Shown here: in pieces, positions 9,056 to 25,817 of the stretch
How the letters are laid out: each line of letters starts with the position of its first letter
How positions within the stretch are numbered: the first letter of the stretch is position 1
Assembly (NCBI GenBank): GCA_964393935.1
Contig: CAYMXF010000007.1
Span: 1-27,314 of the forward strand
Origin: an uncultured Planctomycetaceae bacterium
GTDB taxonomy: Bacteria > Planctomycetota > Phycisphaerae > UBA1845 > UTPLA1
Direction of reading: 5' to 3'
Length of the DNA: 27,314 nt
The notes under the pieces: generated by a model
Seen by the model: only the letters and a program-made list of their open reading frames with translations
Database searches by the model: none
What the model was told of the DNA's origin: nothing
Position numbers and translations under genes: made by a program

Positions 9056-9205
9056 CACGCCTTCCTGGATGATCATCGCCCCTCGCACCGCCTACAATCT
9101 ACCCTGAACCGGCCCTTCACGACGTACGCTGCAAGGCTGCCGAGACCGCGGTGCGGTTTCTTGGGCCGCAGTGAGCTTCGTAAGCGCATTGTCTGACGGG
9201 GCGAC

Positions 9206-10573: not shown

Positions 10574-10612
10574 GATCGGTTCCGGTTTTTGCGCGGACGC
10601 ACCGTCCGGGGA

Positions 10613-11479
10613 TCAACCGAAAATGATCAGCACGATCCCGCCGACTAGGACGAGCGACGCCAACAGCCGCCACACGAAAGCGCTCTCGCCCAACATCCAG
10701 CTGCCAAGCAGCACAGAGATCGGGAGCGAGGCTTGGCGAACGGCGGAAACGGCGGCCACGTTGCCGCCCAAAGTCAGAGCTTTCAACAGCAGATAGAACG
10801 ACGCATAACTGGTGGCGGCAGCCAAGAAGCACCGAACGGCAATCCGCGAAAAGTCGGCGGCGAACGAACCAAGCCGCATGCCGTCCGCCTTCGCTTGGCG
10901 CAACGCGACCATGCCGAGCAGCGGAAGTATCAAGACGACCGTCCAGAACAGCCGCACCTCGGGCGAAATAATCTTCATCAGCCGGGCATCGGTGAGCGAA
11001 TAAACGCAGGTTCCAAACATCGCCACGAACGCAAACAGCAAAACCCGCAGATTTTCAAGCGGGTGGACGTTACGCTGCCACTGGATCAGAAAGACGCCAA
11101 GGATTGTGACCGAAATGCCGAGTAGGAGCGAAACGCCATAGCTCTCCCCTAGAACGAGGAAATCGATCAAGACGATCCCGAAAGCGGTCGATCGAAGGAT
11201 CGGATAATAGATCGATAGATCCCCGTACCTGAGCGCGGCGACGGCGAAGACCCCGTACACCAGCTCGCCGCCGGCCGCGAGAAGCAGGAGTGGCCACGCT
11301 CGCCCCGGAATCAGAAAGGATGCATCGCCAAGCGACACGTGAAGACCAGCAAGAGCCGCCGTGAAGGCGAAAATCACGAAATAGGTGAATTCCGGGTTCC
11401 TGTCGCTCTTGACGACCAATTCGCGGAAGGGATGGAGCGCAGCCGATGCCAGGGCGCAGATCGCGACTTCGAAACCCAT
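10613..11479 (-). CDS. EamA/DMT membrane transporter, resembling the phosphonate-cluster-associated EamA clade
   Basis: Highly hydrophobic protein with two EamA-like halves; GDLSIYYPILRS, TCVYSLTD, VSAVRQASL..SVLLG.W.LGE. Confidence 0.82.
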   Translation of the reverse strand: MGFEVAICALASAALHPFRELVVKSDRNPEFTYFVIFAFTAALAGLHVSLGDASFLIPGRAWPLLLLAAGGELVYGVFAVAALRYGDLSIYYPILRSTAFGIVLIDFLVLGESYGVSLLLGISVTILGVFLIQWQRNVHPLENLRVLLFAFVAMFGTCVYSLTDARLMKIISPEVRLFWTVVLILPLLGMVALRQAKADGMRLGSFAADFSRIAVRCFLAAATSYASFYLLLKALTLGGNVAAVSAVRQASLPISVLLGSWMLGESAFVWRLLASLVLVGGIVLIIFG

Positions 11480-11554
11480 CCGGACTCCTCAATATCGGCT
11501 CGTGGCGTGAGATTCACCGGCAACGAAATGTGACAGCCCGGCGTCCGAGATACT

Positions 11555-12169
11555 TCACAAGAGCTGGAACGCGACATCCTTCGACGTGCGGTCTAGACCG
11601 TTGGTCAGCGACATGTCCTGCGGACAAGCGGACAAGACGACCACGACATTGTCCAGCTCCGCCCGCAGGAGCAGGTAGTCTCCTGGCCGCGAAAGCGGGG
11701 GCTGGATCTCCAGCCACCCTCCCGGGTTCTGGCCTCCGGTCACGACCACCCGCTCGAACATGTTAAATGGAGCCGGGATATACGGCGTCATGTAGCCGAG
11801 TTTGGCGAGCGCCGCCCTGAGATTGTCAGCGCAGTTGGCGTGATAACCCTTGTGGCCGAGCAGGCGGTAGCGGTCGACGTCGCAGGCGGCGTGGAGCGTG
11901 TCATGGACGCCCGGCGAGGTGTCCTCGATGACGGTCAGGATCGGCCGCCGCCGGTTGCTGTACAAGGCGTCGCCAATTCCTGGGAACAGCTTTTCGAGGC
12001 ACGAGCGAGTATGCTCCATAGAAGTGAATTCGCTCATGTCGTCGGCGTTGAAGGCCCAGGTATCGACGACCTGCTGACCGTGGGTGTTGATCACCTTGAT
12101 GTGCTGGCCTTTGGCAATGCGCACCGCCTTGCCGTGCCCGCCCGCAATCTTGATGGGTTCGATTGTCAT
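11555..12169 (-). CDS. DUF1989 (urea carboxylase-associated family) protein
   Basis: Likely start ATG 12169 (MTIEPIKIAGGHGKAV). INTHGQQVVDTWAF, LYSNRRRPILTVIEDT, HDTLHAACD, HANCADNL, PFNMF, SRPGDY, SACPQD. Confidence 0.9.
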   Translation of the reverse strand: MTIEPIKIAGGHGKAVRIAKGQHIKVINTHGQQVVDTWAFNADDMSEFTSMEHTRSCLEKLFPGIGDALYSNRRRPILTVIEDTSPGVHDTLHAACDVDRYRLLGHKGYHANCADNLRAALAKLGYMTPYIPAPFNMFERVVVTGGQNPGGWLEIQPPLSRPGDYLLLRAELDNVVVVLSACPQDMSLTNGLDRTSKDVAFQLL

Positions 12170-12426
12170 TGGCTCGCCCCTCTGCCTTATCGCTGTGATC
12201 TTATTCGCAACCCGTACGATCGCCACGATCATCCTCGCCTCGCTCGCCATTTCCGCCGGCCCGTTTTCGACCGGTGTACCGACCGCGGGCGCAACCTCCC
12301 GGCGATCGACCGTCCGATTTTCGGTTTCGCCTTTTCCGGCGCCGGTCGCGCGACCCGGACCACGAATTCGATCGTCATCCGCCCGTTCGCGTGTCACATC
12401 AAGAGAATCCTCAGAGAACCGCTCGG

Positions 12427-12466
12427 TTGACGATGCGATCGATTTGATCGTAATATCTTCAAAATC
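12427..12466 (+). promoter_or_regulatory. Putative sigma70-type promoter of the ABC transporter operon
   Basis: TTGACG (12427-12432), 16 nt spacer, CGTAAT, then TTCAAAAT, in an AT-rich patch about 95 nt upstream of the SBP gene. Confidence 0.5.
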
Positions 12467-12559
12467 AATCTAGAAGGAAGAGGGCACGCGCGCCCTCCGC
12501 GGCGACGGTTTCAAAGCTCCCAAGCGAATGACGGACACTATCCGAGGGAGGATCGAGCC

Positions 12560-13627
12560 ATGTTCCACAGCGTAACCTCTAAGGCAGGCCAATGTCTTGC
12601 CGCCTTCTTCTCCGTCGGCGCAATGGTCATGGGTTTTGCGTGGAATCCAGCGCCGGCCGGTGAATTGGTCGTCTACAGCACCATCGATCCCGACGAGGTG
12701 CCCCTCTACAAAGGAGCCTTCGAAAAGTCCAACCCGAGCATCACGCTCAACATCGTCCGCAGCTCGACCGGTACGACCACAGCCCGGATCTTGGCGGAAA
12801 AGGATAATCCGCGGCACGATGTCATCTTCCGCATGGCTAACACTAGCTTGATCGTTTTCGGCAAGGAAGGATTGCTCTATCCTTACGAGCCGAAGGGGCT
12901 CGCGAGGATCGATCCTGCGTTCAGGGACAAAGTCAACAATCCGCCGCTTTGGGTCGGGAGCAACGCGTATACGAACGCGATTTGCTACAACATCCCCGAG
13001 TCCAAGAAGCTTGGCCTGCCCCCGCCCAAAACCTGGGCGGACCTGATCAAGCCCGTCTACAAGGGCTATATCGTGGCGCCCAACCCGCAGGCCTCGGGCA
13101 CCGGATTCATCAACATCACCGCCTGGATCTTTCTGTGGGGCGAGGATAAGGCTTTCGAATACATGGACAAGCTGGACGAAAACATCAAGTTCTACATGAA
13201 TTCGGGGTCCGCGCCTTGCGTCAAGGCTGGTTCGGGCGAGGTGCCGATTGCCTTGTCCTGGGATTTCCGCGCCGCCAGGCTGATCGGCCAGGGCGCTCCC
13301 ATCGAACTCATCGTCCCGGAAGAAGGCCTAGGGTGGGACCTGGAAGGCTCCGCCATCATGAAGGTCGCGGAAAAGAATGACCGCCTTGCGGACGCGAAGA
13401 CATTCATGGATTGGACGATCTCCGAGGAAGCCCTGAAGGTGCATAACAAAAACTTCGCCATTATTGCGACGCCCGACAAGGTGGAGCCGGTGCCAAACCA
13501 TCCGTCATCTAAGGGCGACATGATGAAATACCTGCTCAAGTATGATTTCGTGTGGAACGCGGAAAACCGCAATCGGTTGATCGCCAAGTGGACCGCGCGC
13601 TACGAAGGCAAGGTCGAAAAGCCGTAA
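12560..13627 (+). CDS. phnS: ABC transporter substrate-binding protein, PhnS2-type (putative 2-aminoethylphosphonate binding)
   Basis: Signal-peptide-like N-terminus. VRSSTGTTTARILAEKDNP, PNPQASGTGF, SGSAPC, EGLGWDLEGSAI match the PhnS2/AfuA-like family as recalled. Confidence 0.82.
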   Translation: MFHSVTSKAGQCLAAFFSVGAMVMGFAWNPAPAGELVVYSTIDPDEVPLYKGAFEKSNPSITLNIVRSSTGTTTARILAEKDNPRHDVIFRMANTSLIVFGKEGLLYPYEPKGLARIDPAFRDKVNNPPLWVGSNAYTNAICYNIPESKKLGLPPPKTWADLIKPVYKGYIVAPNPQASGTGFINITAWIFLWGEDKAFEYMDKLDENIKFYMNSGSAPCVKAGSGEVPIALSWDFRAARLIGQGAPIELIVPEEGLGWDLEGSAIMKVAEKNDRLADAKTFMDWTISEEALKVHNKNFAIIATPDKVEPVPNHPSSKGDMMKYLLKYDFVWNAENRNRLIAKWTARYEGKVEKP

Positions 13628-13666
13628 TTTTACCGCCCCACACCCAATCTTCCGAACTCAATCAAC

Positions 13667-13700
13667 AATCGGCTACCCGCGAACGAGTAGCCGATTTTCT
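13667..13700 (+). terminator. Stem-loop with T tract after the SBP gene (intra-operon attenuator/stabiliser)
   Basis: AATCGGCTAC (13667-13676) pairs with GTAGCCGATT (13687-13696), followed by TTCT. Confidence 0.65.
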
Positions 13701-13749
13701 CTGGCCTGACGGCAGTGCCAACTTCGGCGCAAGCGGATAGGATGGCAGG

Positions 13750-14862
13750 ATGAACAATACTGCGCTATCGCCGAAGAGCGGGAAACGCAGACCGTACCTT
13801 AAGATCGAGAACCTCACCAAGAAGTTCGGCGACTTCATGGCACTGAATGGCGTTTCCCTCGACATCTACGAGGGCGAGTTCATTTGTTTCCTGGGCCCGT
13901 CCGGCTGCGGCAAGACAACCCTGCTACGAACCATTGCGGGGCTGGAGATCCGGACCTCCGGCCGCATCGAGCAGGCCGGCCGCGACATCTCGGTATTGCC
14001 GCCGGCGCAGCGGGATTTCGGGATCGTCTTCCAGTCCTATGCCCTCTTTCCTAACCTGACGGTGGTCGAGAACGTCGGCTATGGCCTCGATCGGCGCAAG
14101 ATTGGGAAGGCTGCGGCTGACGCCCGTGTCGACGAGTTGCTGCATCTCGTCGGCATGCCGGAGCAGGGCTCGAAGTATCCGGCGCAGCTTTCCGGCGGCC
14201 AGCAGCAACGAGTGGCGCTCGCCCGTGCACTCGCCATGTCGCCAGGCTTGCTCCTGCTGGACGAGCCGCTGAGCGCGCTCGACGCCAAGGTACGGGCACG
14301 GCTGCGTCACGAGATCAAGATGCTTCAGCATCGACTCGGTATTACGACCATCCACGTCACCCACGATCAGGAAGAAGCTCTGACCATGGCCGATCGCATC
14401 GTGGTGTTGAACGAGGGCGTCGTCCAACAGGTTGGAACACCGCTTGAGATCTATCGCCAACCCGTGGACCGGTTCGTCGCCACTTTCGTCGGAACCATGA
14501 ATTTTATGCCGGCGGTCGCAGGGGGCGGCGGCAAAGTGCGCTGCATCGGCATCGAGATCACCCCGGGGACATGCCCCGACGGCCTAGCCGAAGGCACGGC
14601 CGTGACCGCATGCGTGCGCCCGGAAGATATCCTCGCCCGCGGCGTCGACGCAGCCGCCACGAACGCCCTGGAAGTCACGGTCGTCGACCTCGAGTTCCTG
14701 GGCTTTTTCTTCCGTGCCGAACTTTCGCCGAAAGGTATGGATAACGTGGCGTTCAATGCTATTTTCTCGCCCAACCTCATGCGCGATTCTGACATCCAGG
14801 TCGGCCGCTCTATGACTGTCGCCTTCCGCGAGGAGCGGGTTCACGTCTTCAAAGACCTTTAA
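13750..14862 (+). CDS. phnT: ABC transporter ATP-binding protein, PhnT2-type
   Basis: GPSGCGKTT (Walker A), VFQSYALF (Q-loop), LSGGQQQRVALARA, LLLLDEP, HVTHDQEEA; TOBE-like C-terminus. Confidence 0.9.
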   Translation: MNNTALSPKSGKRRPYLKIENLTKKFGDFMALNGVSLDIYEGEFICFLGPSGCGKTTLLRTIAGLEIRTSGRIEQAGRDISVLPPAQRDFGIVFQSYALFPNLTVVENVGYGLDRRKIGKAAADARVDELLHLVGMPEQGSKYPAQLSGGQQQRVALARALAMSPGLLLLDEPLSALDAKVRARLRHEIKMLQHRLGITTIHVTHDQEEALTMADRIVVLNEGVVQQVGTPLEIYRQPVDRFVATFVGTMNFMPAVAGGGGKVRCIGIEITPGTCPDGLAEGTAVTACVRPEDILARGVDAAATNALEVTVVDLEFLGFFFRAELSPKGMDNVAFNAIFSPNLMRDSDIQVGRSMTVAFREERVHVFKDL

Positions 14863-14900
14863 CAGCGGTCGCCACGACTCGTGCACGATGGAGCCACCCT

Positions 14901-16589
14901 TTGGCGAAGCAAGCTACGACGGCCACACAGAATTTAGGCCGCGATGATTGGATTTTGCGCGGCGTCATAGTCTTGATCATTGCCGCGCTGTCGATCACGA
15001 TCCTGCTGCCGCTTTGTTTCTTCCTGGTGAAAAGCCTGCAGAACGCGAACCGCGAGTTCGTCGGGATCACCAACTATATCCGATATTTCAATTCCGCGAG
15101 GTTGGTCCGCTCTATCGGCAACAGCATGTTCGCCGGCAGCCTATCGACCGTGATTTCCGTCACGCTGGCGTTCGCTTATGCCTATGGTCTGACACACAGC
15201 TGTCTGCCGGGTAAGGGCTTCTTCCGGGTCATTGCTTTCTTTCCGATGTTTGCGCCGTCGCTGCTGCCGGCAATTTCGTTCGTCTATTTCTTCGGCACGC
15301 AGGGCGTCATCAGAGGCGCTCTGATGGGACACGAGATCTACGGTCCGATCGGAATCGTCATGGGCTTGGTGTTCTACACCTTCCCCCACGCTTTTATAAT
15401 CATCCTGATCGCACTTTCGCTCGCCGATGCGCGATTGTACGAGTCGTCGATTTCGCTACGCGCCTCCAAGTTTAAAACCTTCCACAAAGTGACCCTGCCC
15501 GGCGTGAAGTACGGCCTGATCAGCGCGGCATTCGTTTCCTTCTCGCTCGCGATCACCGACTTCGGCGTGCCCAAGGTCATCGGCGGCAAGTTCACTATGC
15601 TGGCAACCGACATCTATTCCAACGTAGTCGGCGTGCAAGATATGGAGACGGCCGCGGTGGTGGGCGTGGTACTGCTGGTTCCCGCCGCGGTCGCCTTCGT
15701 CTGCGACCGTATGATCCAGGGCAAGCAGATGGCGATGCTATCTGCGCGCGCGGTGCCCTACAGTCCGAAGCCAAGCCGATGGTTCGACCTAACGATGCTC
15801 GGGATTTGCAGCCTGATCGCGTTTCTGATCCTTAGCGTGCTGGTCATGGCTGCTTTTGCATCCCTGGTCCAGTTCTGGCCCTACAATCTCACCCTCACCC
15901 TCGCCAAATACGACTTCGCCGCGACCACCGACAGGGGGTGGGGCGCTTACCATGTCTCACTGTTGATGTCTGGCCACGTCGCAGTGTTCGGCACCGTGCT
16001 GATTTTCGGCGGCGCCTACCTGGTCGAGAAGTCACGCGCTTTCCCGATCGGCCGTTTGGCAATCCAGTTCTTGGCGATGATGCCGATGGCGGTGCCGGGC
16101 ATGGTGCTAGGATTAGCTTACATCTTCTTCTTCAACCATCCCAAGAACCCCCTCGGATTTCTCTATGGAACGTTGGCGATCCTGGTGATCGTCACCGTCA
16201 CCCATTTCTACACGGTCGGCCATCTGACGATGGTGACCGCCTTGAAGCAACTGGACAACGAGTTCGAATCCGTTTCAGCTTCTCTGAAGGTGCCGATTTA
16301 CAAGACCGTCTGGCGGGTCACGGTGCCGGTCTGCGTCCCGGCGATTCTTAACATTATGGTCTATTTATTCATCAACAGCATGACAACCGTTTCAGCCTTG
16401 GTCTTCCTTTATTTCCCCAACACCATGACAGCTTCGATCCTGATGCTTTTCCAGGATGACAACGGCAACTTGGGATCGGCGCTTGCTCTTGGCATGGTAA
16501 TTTTCCTCACCTCGGTGGGCGTGCGCTTCCTGTATTGGCTCCTCACGCTCGGCATCAGCCGCCGGACTCAGGCTTGGCGCGCGTCATGA
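14901..16589 (+). CDS. phnU: ABC transporter fused double permease, PhnU2-type
   Basis: TTG start with GGAG upstream. Two permease repeats; APSLLPAISFVYFFGTQG, DARLYESSISL, TDFGVPKVIGG, QLDNEFESVSASLK. Confidence 0.85.
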   Translation: MAKQATTATQNLGRDDWILRGVIVLIIAALSITILLPLCFFLVKSLQNANREFVGITNYIRYFNSARLVRSIGNSMFAGSLSTVISVTLAFAYAYGLTHSCLPGKGFFRVIAFFPMFAPSLLPAISFVYFFGTQGVIRGALMGHEIYGPIGIVMGLVFYTFPHAFIIILIALSLADARLYESSISLRASKFKTFHKVTLPGVKYGLISAAFVSFSLAITDFGVPKVIGGKFTMLATDIYSNVVGVQDMETAAVVGVVLLVPAAVAFVCDRMIQGKQMAMLSARAVPYSPKPSRWFDLTMLGICSLIAFLILSVLVMAAFASLVQFWPYNLTLTLAKYDFAATTDRGWGAYHVSLLMSGHVAVFGTVLIFGGAYLVEKSRAFPIGRLAIQFLAMMPMAVPGMVLGLAYIFFFNHPKNPLGFLYGTLAILVIVTVTHFYTVGHLTMVTALKQLDNEFESVSASLKVPIYKTVWRVTVPVCVPAILNIMVYLFINSMTTVSALVFLYFPNTMTASILMLFQDDNGNLGSALALGMVIFLTSVGVRFLYWLLTLGISRRTQAWRAS

Positions 16590-16674
16590 GGCATCCGCGC
16601 ACGAATGGCGCGATCGCGCTCGCACCTGGAAGGCCGCCCGCGTTGGCCCGGGTTAGTGACGTGTCGGCAGTTTG

Positions 16675-16710
16675 TTGACGCGGGACAAAATTTATCATAA
16701 ATATTCAAAA
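16675..16710 (+). promoter_or_regulatory. Putative promoter of the aldehyde dehydrogenase gene
   Basis: TTGACG (16675-16680) followed by AT-rich CATAAAT and TTCAAAAAT; layout resembles the 12427 site. Confidence 0.45.
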
Positions 16711-16802
16711 ATGCTCATTGCTCAGACGCGAGCCACGCGCCCCGGACGTCGTGGGAGCAAGATCGCCTGGGTGCCGCGTCCCAAGGATGGAGAATAACGC
16801 CA

Positions 16803-18242
16803 ATGGACCAGAAATCGCACGTGAAACTGGAACTGGAGCGCGATTTCAAGAATTTGATCGCGGGCAAGTGGGTCGATTCGGACAAGAAGATCGAGGTCCA
16901 CAACCCTTATACCAACGAGTTGGTCGGGACCGTCCCGCGGATGAACCTGGCGGAGGTCAAGCGCGCGATCGACGCCCTATACGCATACGAGCCGACCCTA
17001 ACCGCGCATCAACGTTCCGAGATCCTGAGGGCGACCGCGGCCGAGATCGCCTCACGCACCCAGGAGTTCGCGTACGGTATTTCGCTCGAATCGGGGATGT
17101 CGCTCAAGGACAGCACCAAGGAGGTCGGCCGCGGGGTCGGACTGCTGACCGTCGCCGCCGAGGAGGCCAAGCGCATCTACGGGGAGCAGCTGCCGAGCGA
17201 CGTCGATGCCACGGGCGCTGACAAGATCATCCTCGCCATCCGTTTTCCGGTTGGTTTGGTCAGCGCCATCGTTCCGTTCAACCGGCCAATGAACCAGGTG
17301 GTGGTCAAGGTCGCGCCAGCGATCGCATCAGGCAACAAGGTCATCGTCAAGCCGACCGAGCGGACCCCAATGTCAGCGATCCGCTTCGTGCAGGCTCTGC
17401 TGAAAAACGGCCTGCCGCCGGAGATGATCAGCGTCGTCACCGGCCGTTCGAGCGAGATCGGCAACGAGCTGGTTTCAAGCCCGAAAATCGACATGGTGAC
17501 CTTCACTGGCAGCACCGAAGTCGGCCGCAAGCTGACCACACTGGCCGGCATCAAGAAGCTGACCATGGAACTCGGCGGCAACGATCCCCTGATCGTGCTC
17601 GAGGACGCAGATCTCGACAAGGCGGTGAAGCTGGCCACGGCCGGCGCCTACAGCAATGCCGGCCAGGCCTGCCGCGGCATAAAGCGGATCCTGGTAGTGG
17701 AGCAAGTCGCCGACGCCTTCGCCGCGAAGCTGAAGGCGGCGACCGAGAAGATCAAGTGCGGCAACCCATTCGACCCCGAAACCGACGTCGGCACCGTGAT
17801 CGATGAAAAGGCGGCGATGGACATCGAGGCGGTGGTTAACAAGGCGGTCCAGGATGGTGCCAAGATTCTGTGCGGACACAAGCGCAAAGGGGCTCTCTAT
17901 CCGCCGACGGTGATCGACCACGTCGACCCGAAGTCGAAAATGGTGATCGACGAAACTTTCGGTCCGCTCGCGCCGATCATCCGTGTCAAGGACGTGAAAG
18001 AGGCCTGCGAAATCGCTAATTCGACGGAATTCGGCCTGCAGTCGGGCGTCGTCACCAACAATCTGGAAAACATCCGCTACTGCATCAAGAAGCTGAAGGT
18101 CGGGGCGGTCAACATCAACGAGGGGCCGCAGCACGACATGCCAAACATCCCTTTCGGAGGCGTCAAGCAGAGTGGAATCGGACGCGAGGGCATCCGCTAC
18201 GCCATTCAGGAAATGACTTACGTCAAGTGCATCGTTATGTAA
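16803..18242 (+). CDS. phnY: NAD-dependent aldehyde dehydrogenase of the phosphonoacetaldehyde dehydrogenase (PhnY) clade, with altered substrate-pocket residues
   Basis: ALDH motifs PFN, KPTE, FTGS, MELGGND, catalytic Cys290 (GQACRG), ETFGP, PFGG. PhnY-like N-terminus (IEV..PY....VGTVP, Y.PTLT..QRS.IL, LESG.S.KDS..EVGR). Confidence 0.72.
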   Translation: MDQKSHVKLELERDFKNLIAGKWVDSDKKIEVHNPYTNELVGTVPRMNLAEVKRAIDALYAYEPTLTAHQRSEILRATAAEIASRTQEFAYGISLESGMSLKDSTKEVGRGVGLLTVAAEEAKRIYGEQLPSDVDATGADKIILAIRFPVGLVSAIVPFNRPMNQVVVKVAPAIASGNKVIVKPTERTPMSAIRFVQALLKNGLPPEMISVVTGRSSEIGNELVSSPKIDMVTFTGSTEVGRKLTTLAGIKKLTMELGGNDPLIVLEDADLDKAVKLATAGAYSNAGQACRGIKRILVVEQVADAFAAKLKAATEKIKCGNPFDPETDVGTVIDEKAAMDIEAVVNKAVQDGAKILCGHKRKGALYPPTVIDHVDPKSKMVIDETFGPLAPIIRVKDVKEACEIANSTEFGLQSGVVTNNLENIRYCIKKLKVGAVNINEGPQHDMPNIPFGGVKQSGIGREGIRYAIQEMTYVKCIVM

Positions 18243-18299
18243 GCGGCGGCGCCGGCGCGCCCGCCTGTGATCCCGGTCCTCGGGCACGACGCCCGAAGC

Positions 18300-19097
18300 C
18301 TACCGAACGTGCGCGATCACGACCTCCAAACCCAGTTTCTGCAGCGCCTGCCTGACGTCGCGATTGAGTTTGTTGTCCGTCACGATTCTCTTTATTTCAG
18401 TCAGCTTGGCCACTGGGAAAAGGAAATTCGCCTCGAACGGATCGGAGAAGTTGACCTCGAACTTGCTTGAATCGGCAACCACGGTGACTTCTTTCGCCGC
18501 GCGCAGGAACCGGCGATTGATCTCGGCCTCGAGCGGGCTGTGCACAGAGATTCCACGTTCGATCGAGACCGCCAGAACTCCGAGGAACGCTTTCGGCACC
18601 TGGATTCCCTGCATCATCTTCTCGGCTAGCGGGCCGATCGTCGCGAGCTCCTTCGAGTCGACCGCGCCGCCGATCAGAAGTACCTGAGAGTCGGGCGCGT
18701 TCGAAATCTCTATCGCAACGGCCAGGCCGTTGGTAACCACCTTCAGGTTTTTCACGTTCTTGAGCTGGTGCGCCAGCACGCGCATGGTCGTGCCTGCGTT
18801 GATGATCAAGCTGTCGCCATCCTGTATGTATTCGGCCGCTTTTTGCGCGATCGACAGTTTCTCCGCGTAGTATTCTTTCTCGCGGACCTCGTAAGGCGAC
18901 ATCAACTTGTCCGGCGTGACCAGGGCGACAGCGCCGCCGTGCGTACGGACGAGATGGCCGCCGCTGTCCAGCATAGCCAGATCCCTCCGGATCGTGACCG
19001 CGGAAATGCTCAACTTCTCGGCAAGATCCGCGATGGAAACGACACCGTCCTTATTGAGCAGGGATTTAATCTTGTTGTGGCGGGCGGCCCGGATCAT
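18300..19097 (-). CDS. DeoR/GlpR family transcriptional regulator (copy 2, paralog of 8285..9055)
   Basis: Likely start ATG 19097 (MIRAARHNKIKSLL). TIRRDL, RTHGGA, INAGTTM, VVTNGLAVA, KAFLG, HSPLEAEIN, DSSKFE. Confidence 0.93.
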   Translation of the reverse strand: MIRAARHNKIKSLLNKDGVVSIADLAEKLSISAVTIRRDLAMLDSGGHLVRTHGGAVALVTPDKLMSPYEVREKEYYAEKLSIAQKAAEYIQDGDSLIINAGTTMRVLAHQLKNVKNLKVVTNGLAVAIEISNAPDSQVLLIGGAVDSKELATIGPLAEKMMQGIQVPKAFLGVLAVSIERGISVHSPLEAEINRRFLRAAKEVTVVADSSKFEVNFSDPFEANFLFPVAKLTEIKRIVTDNKLNRDVRQALQKLGLEVVIAHVR

Positions 19098-19290
19098 GTG
19101 TTTTGGGTTTGATCGTCTGTTCACAGTCCGGGGTCCGTGACGATTATGCGGGCTGGGGGAAGGTGCCAACCAAGAACGGCATCGCTGGCGAGCGAACACA
19201 ATACAATAAAAGCAAGTGTATCATCAGGGTGGCTTGCCGGACACCCCAAAATTTTCTCCGACGCGCTCTCAGCCCTGACCGAGTCGGCAT

Positions 19291-19330
19291 CGCCGCCCGG
19301 AGATATCAGATCGGCATCTTCCGGGCGGTG
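19291..19330. repeat. GC-rich inverted repeat (hairpin)
   Basis: CGCCGCCCGGA (19291-19301) pairs with TCCGGGCGGTG (19320-19330) with one G-T pair. Confidence 0.5.
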
Positions 19331-19589
19331 AGGCTGGAGCACGCGGGAATCGTTCGGGCGGGGCAAGTTCAAAGCACGGCTCGCACATCCTCAAGATGGA
19401 TATGGAAGGCGACAATCTCCCGCGGGCGACCTGAAAGACGGCGGCCGAGCCCGGTTACAACCATCGGGCCCGCCCGCCCGACGAGGAGTCACCGCCGCCC
19501 ACGCGGCGGGACGATCCGCCAGTCTGGAATACCTTGCGGCGTTCCGTCACCGCCGATGTCGTTGATACCCAGAACCGACGACCGCCTGC

Positions 19590-19629
19590 CGGACCCGCAC
19601 AGGCCTTATTCAAATTCCGTGCGGGTCCG
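19590..19629 (-). terminator. Stem-loop just downstream of the class IV aminotransferase stop
   Basis: Perfect 11-bp stem CGGACCCGCAC (19590-19600) / GTGCGGGTCCG (19619-19629). No T tract, so the terminator role is uncertain. Confidence 0.45.
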
Positions 19630-19645
19630 TGTTGCTGGCAATACC

Positions 19646-20584
19646 CTATTGGGCGGCCACGACGCGTGGCTTGAGGTTGATTCCAGCCACCCGGCGCGCC
19701 TGTTCGTGGACGTCGAACCCGGCCATTTTGCTGAAAGCGTCCGCGATCCGCTGGACCATCGGCCCAGGCACATCCTTGCAGCCGATCGGTTCCCCGTTCA
19801 GGCGCGACGCCGGCACCAAGCACCAGCTGGTCGAGCAGAGGAATGCCTCGTCGCAGTTGTAAAGGTCGTAAATCTGGATATCTCGCTCGACATACGGGAT
19901 GCCCTGCGCCCTGGCGATTTCTTTGATGGTCCGCTCCGTAATCCCCTCAAGCCGGCCGGTCAACAGAGGCACGTGAATCTCTCCGTTCTTGACCACGCCG
20001 ATACTCGACGACCGGTTCTCTGCGACATTCCCGTCCAGGTCAAGCATCACGCACCAAGCGTCCGGGTCGACCTGATAGACCTCGATGTCGGCGAGTGTAT
20101 GGGTGATGCGGCTCGTGGTCTTGATTTTGGCGTCCCACACCTGTGGCGGCTGACGCCGCGTGGACGCGACCACGAGATGCACCCCGGTGTCGATGAACCG
20201 TGCGAATTCCTTGAAGTTGAGGTCCTTGCACGCGATGTGCACCTCACACGGCCCCGCTTTCATGGGGTGGCCGCCGGGTCCACGTGAAACGTAGTGATAG
20301 ACGAAGAATTCCGGGATTTCCTTGAGCCGAGGCGCATTCCGCTGGACTGCTTCTTCGGTGATCTTCAGCATCTGCTCTGGGCTCAACTTGGGATCCATGC
20401 GCAACGGCTTCATCGACCGGTAGAGACGATCGATATGCTCGCGCGTCTTGAACAGCTTGCCGTTGAACGTTCGGGTTGCCTCGTATACCGCGTCGCCGAG
20501 CGTAAAGCCGCGATTCCAGATCGAAACCTTGGCCTCGCTTTCCGGCACCCATTGTCCATTCTGATAGGCAATCTTTTCAGCCAT
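19646..20584 (-). CDS. Class IV PLP aminotransferase (BCAT/D-amino-acid/R-amine transaminase superfamily)
   Basis: NGQWVPESEAKVSIWNRGFTLGDAVYEATRTF, HIDRLYRS, AKIKTT (PLP lysine), LEGITERTI, DEAFLCST, PGPMVQRI. GAGGAG RBS. Confidence 0.9.
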   Translation of the reverse strand: MAEKIAYQNGQWVPESEAKVSIWNRGFTLGDAVYEATRTFNGKLFKTREHIDRLYRSMKPLRMDPKLSPEQMLKITEEAVQRNAPRLKEIPEFFVYHYVSRGPGGHPMKAGPCEVHIACKDLNFKEFARFIDTGVHLVVASTRRQPPQVWDAKIKTTSRITHTLADIEVYQVDPDAWCVMLDLDGNVAENRSSSIGVVKNGEIHVPLLTGRLEGITERTIKEIARAQGIPYVERDIQIYDLYNCDEAFLCSTSWCLVPASRLNGEPIGCKDVPGPMVQRIADAFSKMAGFDVHEQARRVAGINLKPRVVAAQ

Positions 20585-20670
20585 GCGTTCCTCCTCAGTT
20601 TCCGAAAATCAAAACACGTGACGAGACCGGGCTGCGCCGACCCCGCTTTTGCCGCGCGCGGCGGCGTCAT

Positions 20671-21714
20671 TCAGCTGCGCGCGGCCTCGCCGGATAAGGG
20701 CACCGGCATGTTCATGTCCTTCATGTTGAGCAGGCCTGGAAGAGCATCGCGCACACGCGGTATCGAATTGACCAGGATCGCGACCGTTCCGATGTCGCCG
20801 TTCACGCCCCCCAAGAACTTTGCATGAAGATTCGGCCTTCCTTCAAGCTCGACCGAATCGTACGGCTCCTCGACGTTAGCGTGGGCAATAAAATCCAGGG
20901 TTACCAGCACCTTGCCGTTCTTCCTCGCCTCGGCGACGCTTCTCAGGCCGGCCACCTGTCCCGGCCTGACGGTCGTCAGGACCTCATTCTTCGTGTGGTC
21001 GGTGTAGGTGGTGACTTCGGATTCGCAGATTACAGGCTCGACCGGAAGCTCGCGAATATCGTCCACGTCGAGTCCGAGGCCGTCAACGATCATCGCCGCC
21101 GACTCGATCAGTCCGACGTGGCCGGTGATAACCTTCTCCTTGATCAGGCGCAGAAATTCCTTTTTCTCCATCCCTGTGCCGATCTTCTTCTGGAACGAGG
21201 GCCGGCGCGTCCTTGAATACATCACCCGCATCACCTTGACGCGCTTTACTTCCAGGCAAATACCCGAAATCAGCAGCGGAAACTTGTCCATCAAGAAGCC
21301 CGGGTTGATGCCCGTGGCAAGGATGGTTATGCCGTTCTGCTTGCAGACTTTGTTGATCTCCTCCGCAAGCTTGCGCTGCTTGAAATAGGGAAAGGAAAGC
21401 TCCTCGCAGCTCGTGATTACGTCCAACCCGGCACGCGCGCATGCCTTGAGCTGGGGCGTGATCTTTTCCAGGTTCGAAGAGGTCATATGGATGACGATGT
21501 CGGCCTTGCTTTTAGCAAGCACGCCGGTCGCGTCGTCGGTAATGGTGACGAAGGCCTTGCGCTCCGCGCGGACGACTTCGCCGAGATCCTTGCCGACATT
21601 GGCGAGATCGATCGCACCGACGATGTCGATTTGACCCTGATTCAGAATGAACCTGGCAACGTTCTTTCCAAGCGATCCAATTCCATACAAAATTGCTCTT
21701 GTCTTCTTCTTCAT
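20671..21714 (-). CDS. NAD(P)-dependent oxidoreductase, 2,4-diaminopentanoate dehydrogenase (Ord)/native amine dehydrogenase/DapB-N-like family
   Basis: Likely start ATG 21714 (MKKKTRAILYGIGSLG, Rossmann). DVITSCEEL, TGINPGFLMD, KKIGTG, GHVGL, GGVNGDIGT, NSIPRV...PGLL. Confidence 0.78.
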   Translation of the reverse strand: MKKKTRAILYGIGSLGKNVARFILNQGQIDIVGAIDLANVGKDLGEVVRAERKAFVTITDDATGVLAKSKADIVIHMTSSNLEKITPQLKACARAGLDVITSCEELSFPYFKQRKLAEEINKVCKQNGITILATGINPGFLMDKFPLLISGICLEVKRVKVMRVMYSRTRRPSFQKKIGTGMEKKEFLRLIKEKVITGHVGLIESAAMIVDGLGLDVDDIRELPVEPVICESEVTTYTDHTKNEVLTTVRPGQVAGLRSVAEARKNGKVLVTLDFIAHANVEEPYDSVELEGRPNLHAKFLGGVNGDIGTVAILVNSIPRVRDALPGLLNMKDMNMPVPLSGEAARS

Positions 21715-21883
21715 CAGGGTCTCCTCGCGCCAGCAACTGGACCAAAACGAATCGAACACGTCGCGACGGTGGACCTCATCCGGCGCGCGCCCGGCGGGGG
21801 GTGGGGTAGGGTAACAGCCCGTTGCCGTCTTTCGCTGCGGATCGCGATCCGAGCGCAAGGTCAACCATGATCGGTAATGGCAT

Positions 21884-21911
21884 ATTTTGATCGATATAGT
21901 CAATATCAAAA
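21884..21911 (-). promoter_or_regulatory. Putative promoter/operator of the dehydrogenase-aminotransferase operon
   Basis: Minus-strand TTGACT (21898-21903). Inverted TTTTGAT (21885-21891) / ATCAAAA (21905-21911). Closely resembles 7984-8005. Confidence 0.55.
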
Positions 21912-22050
21912 GCGGACCGGCGCAATCCCGGCTTGGGCTCGAATCTGCCGGTTAGAGAGAGCCTCGTCCAGTATGACTCGCCGACAGATGGCGTCCCGGT
22001 TGCTTGGTGACCGACGCGGCCGCTGCCGATTATGAACCATTTATCGTATA

Positions 22051-22081
22051 TCGTTGACAATCAACGAACCACAATTACTAT
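22051..22081 (+). promoter_or_regulatory. sigma70 promoter with overlapping palindromic operator upstream of the GntR gene
   Basis: TTGACA (22054-22059), 16 nt spacer, TACTAT (22076-22081). Inverted repeat TCGTTGA-CAA-TCAACGA (22051-22067) covers the -35 element. Confidence 0.7.
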
Positions 22082-22112
22082 GCCGTCGGCACCTTAAAAT
22101 CCAGGGTTCCTT

Positions 22113-22805
22113 GTGAATACGCTGAAAATCGTCCAATCGAATTCACTGTCGACGCTGGTGCAGGAAGAGATCACCCGGATGATCCTCGCGGGTGAAATTG
22201 CGACCGGCGAATGGCTGAACGAATCCGCGTTTTCCCAGCGTTTCGGTGTATCACGCGGACCGGTGCGCGAAGCGCTTCGGTCGTTGCAGGAATCCGGATT
22301 GGTCCGGCAGGAGAAGAATCGCGGCGTATTTGTGCGCGAGCTCACCGTCGCCGAGGCGGATCAGATCTACGAGGTCAGGGAAGCCTTGGACGAGCTCATC
22401 GGCAAAAGGGTGGCGGCCGCCGCATCGAAGGCACAGATCGGGAAACTGCGAGAGTTGGTCGAGAAGATGGACCAATCGGTCCGCAGCGACGATTTGCACC
22501 GGTATTATCTCGATAATCTGAAGTTTCACGATCTGCTCGCCAACCTCAGCGGCAATGCGAAGCTGATGTTAGCTTACCGGCGGCTGATCAACGAGCTTCA
22601 CCTGTTCCGGTTGCACGGGCTTGCCCAATTCGGCGGCTTGCGAACCTCGAACGAGGAACACCACGCGCTTCTGAAGGCGATCGAGACGAAGAACCCCGAG
22701 GCCGCCGGCCGATTGCTGAAGGCGCATGTCGTGGCGAGCCGCCGTCGCATGCATAAAGCGTTGGCGGCGCGACCGTTAGAATCAGAGCGCTGCTCCGCCG
22801 GATAG
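22113..22805 (+). CDS. GntR (FCD) regulator, phosphonate-utilisation-associated type
   Basis: GTG start. QSNSLSTLVQEEITRMILAGE...LNES...GVSRGPVREA...GLVRQEKNRGVFVRE...EADQIYEVR, FHDLL. Matches the PhnR-like GntR clade found beside AEP operons, as recalled. Confidence 0.88.
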   Translation: MNTLKIVQSNSLSTLVQEEITRMILAGEIATGEWLNESAFSQRFGVSRGPVREALRSLQESGLVRQEKNRGVFVRELTVAEADQIYEVREALDELIGKRVAAAASKAQIGKLRELVEKMDQSVRSDDLHRYYLDNLKFHDLLANLSGNAKLMLAYRRLINELHLFRLHGLAQFGGLRTSNEEHHALLKAIETKNPEAAGRLLKAHVVASRRRMHKALAARPLESERCSAG

Positions 22806-22957
22806 GGAATCGACCACGCATATCAGCCAAGTCACAGGGATCGCCTGATCCCAACCAACGAAGAAGACCGGAATGCTGTTGGGTGGCACCTCCGGTCATC
22901 GATGGAGAAGTTCTAGTTCCAGTCATCAGTTGTGTTACGTGAGGGGAAGAAAAGCAA

Positions 22958-24103
22958 ATGGCCGCAAGCACGAAACGTAGAATCCTGATCGTGATGATGG
23001 ACGGGTTCGACCCCGCTTATCTGCAGGCGAGTGACATGCCGAACACCAAGCAGATGACCGCCAGCGGGTTCTACAAGACCGTCAAAGGTGTGATGCCCAG
23101 CGTGACGAACGTGAACAACACCGGCATATGCTGTGGCTGCCCGCCCTCGCAACACGGCATCACGGCGAATTCCTATTTCGATCTGCAGACGCAGAAAGAA
23201 GAATACATGGACAAGGCGGCAATGGTGCTTGCCCCCACGATATTCGAGCGCGGCGCGCCGCTTGGATTCAAGTCGGCCCTCTTGACCGCGAAAAAGAAGA
23301 CCCAGTCGTTGCTACGAACTGGCGCTACAATCCGGCTGGCGGCAGAGGCGCCGAAGGACGCCGAGGGATCCAACATCGATTGGATCGGCCGGCTCGGTCC
23401 GGCCCCCGATATCTACTCGCTCGAAATCAATCTGTGGCTGTTCCGGGCGGCACAGATCGTCTTGAACGAGACAGATACCAATCTCGTTTACTTCCATACG
23501 ACCGACTATCCCATGCACATGGAGCCGCCTTGGGGCGAGAAATCGCTGTTCCACCTGAGTCAGTTGGACAAGCTGCTTGGCGAAACACTCAACGCGCATC
23601 CCAAGCTGGAAATCTACATGTCCGCCGACCATGGGATGAACTTCAAATCGCGCTGCTACGACTTGAACAAGGTTGTGCCGAATAAGGGCGCAGAAATCTT
23701 CTTCGCGATGTCTGCGGAACGCGATCCCTATGTGAAGCATCATCGGAACTTCGGTGGCACGGCGTTCGTGTGGCTGCGGCGCCCGGGCGATTTCGATCGC
23801 GTGGCGGACATCTGCCGTCGGCTGGACGGCGTGGAGGCCGTCTACGACCGCTACACGGCTGCGTCCAAATACCTCCTGCACCCCGATCGCATCGGCGACA
23901 TGCTGGTTATGGGCGACTTCAACACGGTCTTCGGTCCGCTCGAAGGCAAGGAGGGCATCGAGGAAATGGCGAAAGGCTTCCGGACGCACGGCGGCAGCGA
24001 TGAGGCGATCGCGCCGCTGATCATCTACAACCGGGCAGTCGATCCCCGGCTGTGGCATGAAATCCGCTACAACTTCGATCTGACCAAGCCGATCGGCTTC
24101 TAG
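22958..24103 (+). CDS. phnA: Phosphonoacetate hydrolase-like protein (alkaline phosphatase superfamily)
   Basis: MMDG, PSVTNVNN (Thr nucleophile; canonical PSFTNPNN), TTDYPMH, SADHGM, DPYVKHH, DRIGD, RTHGG. All dinuclear-metal ligand motifs are present. Confidence 0.8.
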   Translation: MAASTKRRILIVMMDGFDPAYLQASDMPNTKQMTASGFYKTVKGVMPSVTNVNNTGICCGCPPSQHGITANSYFDLQTQKEEYMDKAAMVLAPTIFERGAPLGFKSALLTAKKKTQSLLRTGATIRLAAEAPKDAEGSNIDWIGRLGPAPDIYSLEINLWLFRAAQIVLNETDTNLVYFHTTDYPMHMEPPWGEKSLFHLSQLDKLLGETLNAHPKLEIYMSADHGMNFKSRCYDLNKVVPNKGAEIFFAMSAERDPYVKHHRNFGGTAFVWLRRPGDFDRVADICRRLDGVEAVYDRYTAASKYLLHPDRIGDMLVMGDFNTVFGPLEGKEGIEEMAKGFRTHGGSDEAIAPLIIYNRAVDPRLWHEIRYNFDLTKPIGF

Positions 24104-24122
24104 CGGAGCGTCAATCAGCCCT

Positions 24123-25817
24123 ATGAGCACGATCGACGAAAAACCGATCTCCGTATCATTGCTCACGGGCTTTTTGGGCAGCGGTAAGACGACGCTGCTC
24201 AATCACCTGCTCGCGCATCCGGATATGGATAAGACGGCGGTGCTGATCAACGAGTTCGGCGAGATCGGACTTGACCACTTGATTGTCGGAAGGCTCGACG
24301 AGGACGTCGTGCTGCTGAAGTCCGGCTGCATCTGCTGCACCGTGCAAGGGCAGCTGGTCGACGGGCTGAAAGAGCTTTACGTCAAGCGGCTGGCTGGGCA
24401 GACTCCGGCCTTCACGCGGCTTGTGATCGAAACGACCGGGCTCGCCGATCCGTTGCCGATCGTTGACTGCCTGATGCGCGACCCACTTTTCAGGCGGGTC
24501 TATCGGCTGGACACGGTGGTGACGACGGTGGACGCGGTCTACGGCGGGGGCCAGCTTGATATGCACCGGGAGGCTATCCACCAGGCGGCGATCGCCGACA
24601 ACATCGTTATCACCAAGGACGATATCTCCGACAAGGCACGGATCGGTTCGCTGCGGGAGCGGCTAAGTCGCCTCAATCCAGGTGCCAAGATTATTTCCGC
24701 GCAATTCGGCCAGGTAACTCCGGGTGAGTTGTTCGGCAGCGGATTCTTCGATCTGCAGCAGAAATTTCTCGACATGCGGAAATGGTTCGGCACCGCGGAG
24801 CATAGCGGTCAGTCGGCGAATACCCACGATCAGCACGGCGCGCATGATCACGTCCAGGAGGATCACGGCCATGCCGGGCGCGCGCACGAGGAGCACGAGC
24901 ATGTGGATGTGAACCGGCATGACGAGCGCATCGCTTCATTCTGCATCGTGCTGGATGAGGCGGTATCGTGGGAGGCCTTTACCCGCTGGTACGACGATCT
25001 TGCCGAGAAAAAGGCCGATCATCTGTTGCGGGTGAAAGGCATCCTCAACGTGGAGAACACACCGACCCCGGTATTTGTGCATTGTGTGCAATCCACCCAA
25101 CATGACCCGACGCTGCTGCCATCCTGGCCCGACGACGACCATCGCTCGCGCATCGTGTTCATCACCCGCGATTTGGCGCGCGGCGAGGTGGAAGCCAATC
25201 TGCGTGCGCGGCTGGCAGCAGCGCGAACCGATAGCGGGTCCAACAGGGCGCATGGCACGCCGACTTTTGTCCAACCTCCCGGCGCGAGCCGCTGGCTGAA
25301 CCAGGCGGAGCTGAGCCGGTTGTTCGCCGCGTTGCTGCTGCAAAATGACCGCTTCGCCGTCGACGTTTTGCGGTTGATGCTGCTTACTGGCGTGGATAGC
25401 GAGGCGACACGTCTAGCACGGTGGGAGGATTTCGACATCGACCAGCATTTGTGGCTGTTGCCGCATGCGGCTGCAACGAAGCCCGGTGTCGGCGCGCGCG
25501 CGCGCCGCATCTCGCTTCATTCCACGGCGCTGACACTGCTGGCCGGCTTGCGGCAACGAGGCACGAGCAGAGGTTATCTGTTCGGCGGTTCGAAGCCCGA
25601 GACCTCGGCCGAGCGGCTGGACCGTGCGTGGAAGACCGCAACCGAACAGGCCAAGATCCAAAGGATTGCCCTGACCGAACTGCAACCCACGCTTGCGATC
25701 GACGTGTTTGCCGGACTTGCGCCGACGTTGGTACGTGTACTGCTTGGACTCGCCAGCCAAGCAGCACCTAAAGTGGCATTGTCTGTACCGAAAACGTCGG
25801 CCGATTTGACTCGCTGA
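24123..25817 (+). CDS. COG0523/CobW-family (G3E) metal-binding GTPase fused to a catalytically substituted tyrosine-recombinase-like C-terminal domain
   Basis: TGFLGSGKTT, INEFGEIGLD, GCICC, IETTGLADP, ITK.D, His-rich linker, LRVKG and RIVFI (CobW_C). From about 25290 integrase-like LMLLTG...ARWEDFD...W.LP...TK...R.I.L...YLF...RAW...LLG. Confidence 0.85.
   Translation: MSTIDEKPISVSLLTGFLGSGKTTLLNHLLAHPDMDKTAVLINEFGEIGLDHLIVGRLDEDVVLLKSGCICCTVQGQLVDGLKELYVKRLAGQTPAFTRLVIETTGLADPLPIVDCLMRDPLFRRVYRLDTVVTTVDAVYGGGQLDMHREAIHQAAIADNIVITKDDISDKARIGSLRERLSRLNPGAKIISAQFGQVTPGELFGSGFFDLQQKFLDMRKWFGTAEHSGQSANTHDQHGAHDHVQEDHGHAGRAHEEHEHVDVNRHDERIASFCIVLDEAVSWEAFTRWYDDLAEKKADHLLRVKGILNVENTPTPVFVHCVQSTQHDPTLLPSWPDDDHRSRIVFITRDLARGEVEANLRARLAAARTDSGSNRAHGTPTFVQPPGASRWLNQAELSRLFAALLLQNDRFAVDVLRLMLLTGVDSEATRLARWEDFDIDQHLWLLPHAAATKPGVGARARRISLHSTALTLLAGLRQRGTSRGYLFGGSKPETSAERLDRAWKTATEQAKIQRIALTELQPTLAIDVFAGLAPTLVRVLLGLASQAAPKVALSVPKTSADLTR

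Follow-up and report, generated by a model that had tools for sequence, protein, structure and literature searches.

A PhpJ-type aldehyde dehydrogenase, predicted to oxidise formylphosphonate, in an apparently catabolic phosphonate locus of an uncultured planctomycete

Two described aldehyde dehydrogenases (ALDHs) lie close to the gene examined here. PhpJ belongs to phosphinothricin tripeptide biosynthesis in Streptomyces viridochromogenes and S. hygroscopicus; it is reported to resemble PhnY and to turn phosphonoformaldehyde into phosphonoformate (PMC8942020), and mutants lacking phpJ reportedly build up aminomethylphosphonate (PMC8976061, PMC11203657). PhnY of Sinorhizobium meliloti has been solved structurally (PDB 4I3T-4I3X) and acts on phosphonoacetaldehyde. 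The window, a 27,314-nucleotide stretch from an uncultured Planctomycetaceae bacterium (assembly GCA_964393935.1, contig CAYMXF010000007.1), encodes an ALDH that an earlier note had described as a PhnY-clade enzyme with a rewired phosphonate-binding pocket. Judged from its residues, phylogeny and neighbours, the gene probably encodes (at a probability of roughly 0.72) a PhpJ-type formylphosphonate dehydrogenase in a catabolic rather than a biosynthetic setting.

The window protein scores 499 bits against Pfam Aldedh (PF00171), and the residues C290, E256 and N160 are present in it and invariant both in its own group and in canonical PhnY, as expected of the ALDH superfamily. Its top NCBIfam model is the PhnY equivalog TIGR03250, at 531.2 bits and thus under the cutoff of 635.65; the model of the Methanocaldococcus lactaldehyde dehydrogenase (NF040648) nearly equals it at 512 bits, and the SafD and succinate-semialdehyde models reach 387–394 bits. 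E186 occupies the position that governs cofactor choice in ALDHs, where Glu favours NAD+, and the enzyme is likely to use NAD+.

Among solved structures, PhnY of S. meliloti is the nearest (403 bits, 44% identity). In a HMMER alignment to PDB 4I3T, ungapped at the motifs, PFNR of the window protein pairs with PFNH, GQACR with GQRCT and PQHDMP with PGYRIE, and EVGR is common to both. Direct codon reading confirmed PFNR, GQACRG, PQHDMPNIPFGG and EVGR, and with them the residues that the earlier note had picked out (R161, the Cys290 region and D445 near 18135). The PhnY consensus that it had given (PFNH, GQRC, PGYR) agrees with the alignment, and the EVGR Arg that it considered retained is R110, aligned with its PhnY counterpart. 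From PhnY to the window protein the changes are H159 to R, R290 to A, T292 to R, R447 to D and E449 to P, and the Arg beside the catalytic Cys is shifted from position −1 to +1. The PhnY pocket set comprises R108, H159, R290, T292, R447 and E449 (approximate S. meliloti numbering), residues whose roles in the pocket have reportedly been assigned; it is intact in 21 of 21 canonical PhnY proteins, and the window protein keeps only R108, as R110.

These substitutions are the mark of a whole family and not a peculiarity of the window gene, because 104 of 114 full-length homologues retrieved by similarity share R161, Ala/Ser289, R291, Asp/Glu/Ala445 and Pro/Ala447. Eight of the 114 carry the canonical set (His/Tyr, Arg, Thr, Arg, Glu) and two are mixed. 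The mixed pair are metagenome proteins (P0063 and P0075), one with R161 and an otherwise canonical pocket, the other canonical at 161, 289 and 291 with D445 and P447; both are known from one sequence only, which could be a chimera of assembly. The 13 strongest TIGR03250 matches in 400 sampled Pseudomonadota genomes (567–640 bits) all have PFNH, GQRCT and PG(Y/F/W)R. Position 161 is Arg in 84/84 signature proteins and His in 21/21 canonical ones (conservation at 161 and 291 is partly by construction in the genome-locus set, because its 80 loci were fetched with peptide patterns containing R161 and R291). Positions 445 and 447, like the similarity-based set of 114, are free of this retrieval bias: 445 is Asp/Glu in 82/84 signature proteins and Arg in 21/21 canonical ones, and 447 is Pro in 83/84 and Glu in 21/21.

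When every aligned position was scanned for residues at least 90% fixed in each group and different between the groups, only 161, 289, 291 and 447 emerged, followed by 445 (Asp/Glu versus Arg) and 292 (Gly versus Ala/Ser). The window protein has all six residues of the signature defined in the present analysis (R161, Ser/Ala289, R291, G292, Asp/Glu445, P447), two of which, P447 for Glu and G292 for Ala/Ser, the earlier note had not listed. Among representatives at 50% clustering the pattern occurs in only three other clusters, and most of the other ALDHs inspected there keep an Arg at the position equivalent to D445. The rewired pocket of the earlier note is real in its substitutions; it is not a one-off, being the conserved signature of an enzyme type known from genetics, and although the note had allowed that the changes might be common in bona fide PhnY, 0 of 21 canonical PhnY proteins carry them.

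A pattern scan of one genome per species yielded 108 relatives, and 80 loci were kept for gene calling, 12 from the close subclade of the window protein and 68 more distant (45–58% identity), the latter mostly from actinomycetes and also from Acidobacteriota, Planctomycetota and others. Genes were called with an open reading frame (ORF) caller that includes a codon-position GC score, neighbours were clustered and recurrent families were named. In the maximum-likelihood tree, the signature proteins form a clade of 39 rows (SH-aLRT 99) beside the canonical PhnY rows, with the exception of a pattern-retrieved locus (L068) that groups with the latter. The window protein lies inside a tight subclade of 64–85% identity (support 100).

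The 68 distant loci are phosphonate biosynthetic clusters. Within 10 kb of the ALDH gene, PEP mutase (Ppm) and phosphonopyruvate decarboxylase (Ppd) are each found in 54 of the 68, a PhpE-type D-2-hydroxyacid dehydrogenase in 60, PhpD/HEPD in 47 (PDB 3G7D, E 6e-147), a PhpC-type alcohol dehydrogenase in 38, the phosphonoformate-consuming PhpF/G/H in 26 and PhpK in six. Hallmarks other than PhpE (PEP mutase, phosphonopyruvate decarboxylase and PhpC/D/F/G/H/I/K) number at least one in 62/68 loci and at least two in 58/68. The gene order of locus L091 is PhpD, PhpE, Ppd, PhpF, PhpG, PhpH, PhpI, ALDH, PhpK, with the flanking genes assigned at 691 bits (PhpI, TIGR02319) and 717 bits (PhpK, TIGR04479) and with a homocitrate-synthase-like gene and a nonribosomal peptide synthetase adenylation protein 3′ of PhpK; the ALDH therefore stands at the phpJ position of a phosphinothricin-type cluster. 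With orthology drawn from synteny in other Streptomyces loci, not from published PhpJ sequences, the signature clade is identified here as the PhpJ family. Among the aldehydes that the earlier note had derived from the shifted charges, formylphosphonate is the one supported by phylogeny and gene context; a longer chain, a sulfonate analogue and an amino-bearing aldehyde gained no support.

Carriers of the window's subclade include Rhodospirillales, Gammaproteobacteria, Burkholderiales and Acidiferrobacterales metagenome-assembled genomes and many metagenome contigs, and in them the ALDH gene is part of a conserved module (sediment, freshwater and marine Proteobacteria). Wherever at least 1 kb of upstream sequence is available (25 related loci), a D-2-hydroxyacid dehydrogenase gene lies 46–154 nt 5′ of it. 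A PhnA-like hydrolase gene follows 21–446 nt 3′ in 21 of the 26 related loci that extend far enough downstream; in L017 the distance is 3.2 kb, and L104–L106, three biosynthetic-type loci, lack the gene. These hydrolases are 58–88% identical to that of the window (the 58% gene, in L112, was counted under a 50% identity threshold), and in most loci that extend far enough a COG0523 GTPase gene comes next, 3′ of the hydrolase gene; it is present in 10 of the 12 genome loci. No PEP mutase, Ppd, PhpC/D or other biosynthetic gene is present in any of the 12 genome loci, which instead carry phosphonate ABC transporters, phosphonate-type LysR/GntR regulators and an EamA protein, and also show a PhnZ/TmpB-like HD oxygenase and a Rieske oxygenase with its reductase. 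The module looks catabolic because no PEP mutase is nearby.

The likely substrate of the module's dehydrogenase–ALDH pair can be read from L104–L106, whose ALDH shares 75% identity with the window protein and branches within the subclade. In these loci a HEPD homologue (PDB PhpD, E 3e-85), a hydroxyacid dehydrogenase and the ALDH follow one another in this order, beside PhpC, Ppd and Ppm. HEPD yields hydroxymethylphosphonate, so the pair would convert hydroxymethylphosphonate to formylphosphonate and then to phosphonoformate. Two other identities were considered for the catabolic hydroxyacid dehydrogenase. It is only ~29% identical to PhpE and was kept as an analogue, with a role inferred from L104, rather than an orthologue; PtxD was rejected, as it has a gene of its own next to that of the dehydrogenase, whose best PDB matches are PGDH and glyoxylate reductase.

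A glyoxylate-reductase/PGDH-like partner upstream of the ALDH in relatives would also suit a substrate outside the phosphonates, namely a small anionic aldehyde. Glyoxylate, which is isosteric with formylphosphonate, sulfoacetaldehyde and malonate semialdehyde are examples, and the scores of the SafD and succinate-semialdehyde models lean the same way. The phosphonate neighbours would then be coincidental, which is very improbable: nearly all clade members lie among phosphonate-specific genes (PEP mutase, HEPD, PhpG above cutoff, PhpK, PtxD, phosphonate transporters and regulators), and the non-phosphonate ALDH models score far under their cutoffs.

The window's PhnA-like protein is a divergent member of its family, with 187 bits to TIGR02335 (cutoff 407.55) and 155 bits to PDB 1EI6. 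Its motif PSxTNxNN aligns with PSFTNPNN of PhnA and keeps the Thr that is the nucleophile in PhnA. Canonical PhnY genes adjoin canonical PhnA in 11 of 13 cases, and those PhnAs are ~31% identical to the window hydrolase; in these loci (L175–L187) phnA lies 5′ of phnY (11/13), the reverse of the module, where the ALDH is 5′ of the hydrolase. Their sequences suggest a joint divergence of ALDH and hydrolase from the PhnY–PhnA pair, which fits a different phosphonocarboxylate. PtxD (phosphite dehydrogenase) is encoded directly 5′ of the hydroxyacid dehydrogenase in eight of 16 loci with enough upstream sequence and in a ninth with less, and matches Pseudomonas stutzeri PtxD (PDB 4E5K/4E5N) at 368 bits versus 154 for the next family. 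Given this adjacency, cleavage of phosphonoformate may give phosphite and CO2 rather than phosphate and formate; alternatively, PtxD may merely share a reduced-phosphorus island with the module. No PtxD was found in the window's genome (87% complete).

More tentatively, and somewhat short of an even chance, the ALDH may be the middle step of an undescribed catabolism of one-carbon (C1) phosphonates via phosphonoformate, ended by a new PhnA-like metalloenzyme that its own COG0523 GTPase would mature; most carriers would start from hydroxymethylphosphonate, and the window's bacterium perhaps from aminomethylphosphonate, the breakdown product of glyphosate. That the ALDH is the middle step of a catabolic route is in itself probable: an imported C1 phosphonate would be converted to formylphosphonate and on to phosphonoformate, whose carbon–phosphorus (C–P) bond would then be cleaved. 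Formylphosphonate probably arises from hydroxymethylphosphonate through the D-2-hydroxyacid dehydrogenase in most relatives; in the window it could come from an amine such as aminomethylphosphonate through the neighbouring transaminase or amine dehydrogenase. Conversion of aminomethylphosphonate to formylphosphonate, by transamination or oxidative deamination, makes chemical sense and has been proposed in the literature, where formylphosphonate is described as unstable and not sold (PMC11203657). The literature searched contained no paper on a catabolic route from hydroxymethylphosphonate to phosphonoformate or on a phosphonoformate hydrolase.

The oxidation itself would follow the ordinary ALDH mechanism with NAD+. 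Cys290 would attack the carbonyl of formylphosphonate (phosphonoformaldehyde, OHC-PO3), Asn160 would stabilise the oxyanion, hydride would pass to NAD+, and Glu256 would activate water for hydrolysis of the thioester to release phosphonoformate. The gained R161 and R291 are immediate neighbours in sequence of the carbonyl-contacting N160 and C290, and the outer PhnY arginines R290 and R447 have given way to Ala/Ser and Asp/Glu. We infer a structural rationale for this change: formylphosphonate carries its phosphonate on the carbonyl carbon itself, not one methylene off, so the anion-binding groups would have to be nearer the reaction centre. The AlphaFold model of the window protein has a predicted local distance difference test (pLDDT) value of 86, and its best match is PhnY (4I3T/4I3X; template modelling (TM) score 0.91).

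Directly 5′ of the ALDH gene, the window encodes a PhnS2-T2-U2-type ABC importer, which scores 379.6 bits to TIGR03261 (cutoff 392.75), 490.7 to TIGR03265 and 721 to TIGR03262, the last two above cutoff. The closest relative (L100, a metagenome contig with an ALDH of 84% identity) shares this importer-first layout, in the order phnU2 3′ end (81%), ALDH, PhnA-like gene, GTPase and a convergent DeoR gene, the last 67% identical to the window DeoR at 18300-19199. In both, the importer stands in place of the hydroxyacid dehydrogenase.

Several points weigh against a PhpJ-type role for the window gene. The importer models are named for 2-aminoethylphosphonate (2-AEP), and characterised PhnS2T2U2 relatives carry 2-AEP, which fits a PhnY-like role (PMC8316502). 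The hydroxyacid dehydrogenase is absent from the window, and the best match in the 87%-complete genome has 39% identity; the window likewise lacks any other neighbouring PhpE-type enzyme that would form formylphosphonate, usually together with HEPD. The pocket loops of the structural model are weak (pLDDT 50–68 at residues 281–290 and 441–460), the genome-locus set is biased at 161 and 291 by its retrieval patterns, and the PhpJ role comes from reported genetics, the substrate of the clade being predicted from context.

If the window gene were instead a true PhnY, imported 2-AEP would be deaminated by a neighbouring aminotransferase or by the amine dehydrogenase, and phosphonoacetaldehyde would be oxidised to phosphonoacetate for hydrolysis by the PhnA-like protein. 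TIGR03250 as the best NCBIfam model, at 531 bits, PhnY as the nearest solved structure, two of three 2-AEP transporter models above cutoff and an ALDH/PhnA-like pairing that mirrors PhnY–PhnA all accord with this. It is nevertheless unlikely, given that the TIGR03250 score is under the curated cutoff, that 21/21 canonical PhnY proteins have other residues at each of the five diagnostic pocket positions, and that the protein branches inside a clade whose members work alongside HEPD and PhpE-type enzymes, a setting that requires a C1 aldehyde. The hydrolase, moreover, is only ~31% identical to PhnA (187 bits versus a cutoff of 407), and in L023 the same transporter type is paired with the hydroxyacid-dehydrogenase form of the module. 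The 87%-complete genome contains no PEP mutase, HEPD, PhnW, PhnX, PhnA or PhnY above cutoff, and hence not the PhnW and canonical PhnA context of PhnY; its best PhnW-like match reaches 102 bits versus a cutoff of 400.8.

Between the ALDH and the PhnA-like gene of the window lie an amine-handling operon and a PhnR-like regulator gene. The operon is a candidate, as yet unproven, source of the aldehyde from an aminophosphonate, and the recurrence of the DeoR gene in L100 is the sole evidence linking it to the module. Together with a weak BhcC-like pyridoxal-phosphate aldolase near the ALDH and the acidic residue Asp/Glu445 in the pocket, it would be compatible with another phosphonate aldehyde or with a generalist enzyme, the substrate being 1-hydroxy-2-oxoethylphosphonate or an amino-bearing phosphonoaldehyde whose hydroxyl or ammonium group Asp445 would bind. 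Such a substrate seems decidedly unlikely, since Asp/Glu445 is equally conserved in biosynthetic PhpJ contexts, where the substrate has neither amine nor hydroxyl, and the amine-handling genes of the window recur beside the ALDH in no other locus examined. No relative of the Ord-like dehydrogenase above 45% identity was found in the 400 sampled genomes.

The promoter-like sites of phnS2 (12427-12470) and of the ALDH gene (16675-16711) are alike, each with TTGACG, a spacer of 17–18 nt, TAATAT or TAAATA and then TTCAAAA(A)T, a likeness that may mean joint regulation of transporter and ALDH. In the window, a combined promoter pattern found the ALDH promoter alone, missing that of phnS2 because the spacing differs. 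A palindromic operator pattern has one match in the window (0.12 expected), is also matched in 12/100 shuffles and supports no shared operator. GGAG at 16789-16792 lies 10 nt 5′ of the ALDH ATG.

The PhnR-like regulator has a homologue (69%) at the equivalent position in L017, the COG0523 metallochaperone GTPase travels with the PhnA-like gene, and EamA homologues are found in L015, L016, L018, L021, L022, L023 and L089. Neither the two genomes of the same genus nor the 22 others of the same family that were searched have the ALDH, an IS3/IS481-like transposase is encoded at 25842-26858, and the GC content is 58–61% over positions 8000-26858 versus 65% in the first 8 kb, which together suggest that the region is an acquired catabolic island. 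On the plus strand at 9206-10573, 3′ of a second DeoR gene, a 455-residue protein shows the weak likeness to BhcC (3-hydroxy-D-aspartate aldolase; 67 bits), a gene seen near the ALDH in no other locus examined; no family matches the antisense ORF at 9092-10444, and the plus-strand frame is the one preferred by codon-position GC. Coordinates of the main features are collected in Table 1.

Table 1. Features of the window, with the phosphite dehydrogenase gene of a related locus in the last row.
Feature	Coordinates	Strand	Basis
PhpJ-type aldehyde dehydrogenase, 479 aa; predicted NAD+-dependent formylphosphonate to phosphonoformate	16803..18242	+	Pfam Aldedh, TIGR03250, tree
Codon R110, Arg common to PhnY, aligned with an Arg of GAPN	17130..17132	+	direct codon reading, alignment
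Codons N160 (oxyanion hole, 17280-17282) and R161 (His in PhnY, 17283-17285)	17280..17285	+	codon reading, alignment
Codon E256, ELGG general base	17568..17570	+	invariant in signature and canonical groups
Codons A289 (17667-17669), C290 (catalytic, 17670-17672), R291 (17673-17675) and G292	17667..17678	+	codon reading
Codons D445 (18135-18137), M446 and P447; Arg-Ile-Glu in PhnY	18135..18143	+	codon reading, alignment
ALDH promoter-like site: TTGACG, 17 nt, TAAATA, then TTCAAAAAT	16675..16711	+	reading; pattern match, 0 expected
PhnS2-T2-U2-type ABC importer: substrate-binding protein, ATPase, fused permease	12560..16589	+	
Divergent PhnA-like alkaline-phosphatase-superfamily hydrolase; candidate enzyme for the ALDH product	22958..24103	+	TIGR02335, PDB 1EI6
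COG0523 metallochaperone GTPase	24123..25817	+	
Operon: DeoR regulator (18300-19199), Ord-like amine dehydrogenase, class IV aminotransferase	18300..21909	-	
GntR-type phosphonate-utilisation regulator, PhnR-like	22113..22805	+	TIGR03338, 264 bits (cutoff 271.5)
EamA-family membrane protein, recurs near the module	10613..11479	-	TIGR03340, 84 bits
PtxD upstream of the module (also L015, L019, L021, L022, L023, L101, L103, L127)	L013:6348-7352	-	

Further arrangements were observed around related ALDH genes. L104:316-12795, with L105 and L106, is a low-GC metagenomic cluster with HEPD, hydroxyacid dehydrogenase and ALDH genes, and facing this set are PhpC, Ppd, a cytidylyltransferase–PEP mutase fusion, an AsnB-like amidotransferase, APS kinase and sulfate adenylyltransferase. 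The cluster appears to make an undescribed product derived from phosphonoformate, and ~30 protein clusters at 75% identity suggest that clusters of its type are common. An asparagine-synthetase-like amidotransferase is also encoded directly 5′ of PhpJ-type ALDHs in Omnitrophota and Actinomycetota (L089:5797-7584, L027:8198-9925; also L030, L041 and L047), where it may amidate phosphonoformate. A Rieske oxygenase, a DmmA/GbcB-like reductase and a PhnZ/TmpB-like HD-domain oxygenase adjoin the module in L013, L016, L018, L022, L103, L107 and L110, and could represent a second phosphonate route, dependent on oxygen, alongside that of the dehydrogenase. Corrinoid-protein fusions (MtgC-like) and a corrinoid reductive activase (AcsV/RamA-like) occur in the islands of L014 (934-3051), L022 (15605-17476) and L018, which suggests corrinoid-dependent demethylation of a methylated substrate.

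The comparison provides a sequence rule by which the PhpJ type (R161, Ser/Ala289, R291, Asp/Glu445, P447) can be told from PhnY (His, Arg, Thr, Arg and Glu at the same positions). Some JGI annotations name signature ALDHs "putative phosphonoacetaldehyde dehydrogenase", and such labels may make phnY counts too high in surveys of 2-AEP catabolism. The module (hydroxyacid dehydrogenase or importer, ALDH, PhnA-like hydrolase, GTPase and often PtxD) is a testable candidate for a new C–P cleavage route, and if this is correct, its PhnA-like metalloenzyme would be the first known to cleave phosphonoformate. The module may further be relevant to what becomes of aminomethylphosphonate, to the turnover of phosphonoformate (foscarnet) and to a biological source of phosphite.

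No description of the signature, of the pairing with PhnA-like hydrolase, GTPase and PtxD, of the importer-linked form or of the module as a whole was found in the literature searched. Compared with PhpJ, the window protein falls in the same clade as the ALDHs at the position between phpI and phpK, shares their signature and is predicted to catalyse the reaction reported for PhpJ (PMC8942020). It is ~46–55% identical to the actinomycete members, and its locus has an importer and a PhnA-like hydrolase instead of PEP mutase, HEPD and PhpF/G/H. With PhnY it shares the fold (TM 0.91), 44% identity, the Cys/Glu/Asn residues, Arg110, the likely use of NAD+ and a partner from the alkaline phosphatase superfamily; it differs in scoring under the PhnY cutoff (531 versus 635.65), in five pocket residues, in lacking PhnW and in the reversed order of the two genes. 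GAPN (e.g., that of Streptococcus pneumoniae, PDB 9DLA) is its second-best match in sequence and structure, and Arg residues of GAPN align with each of R108, R290 and R447 of PhnY. These Arg residues bind the phosphate of the GAPN substrate. Unlike the window protein, to which it is 34–38% identical, GAPN is NADP+-specific and keeps both the pre-Cys Arg and the C-terminal Arg. The Methanocaldococcus lactaldehyde dehydrogenase (NF040648; PDB 3PQA) is matched at 512 bits, near the PhnY score, but under its own cutoff of 650 bits, and nothing in the context links the window gene to lactaldehyde metabolism. The kind of enzyme is already known, and its setting is new and apparently catabolic.

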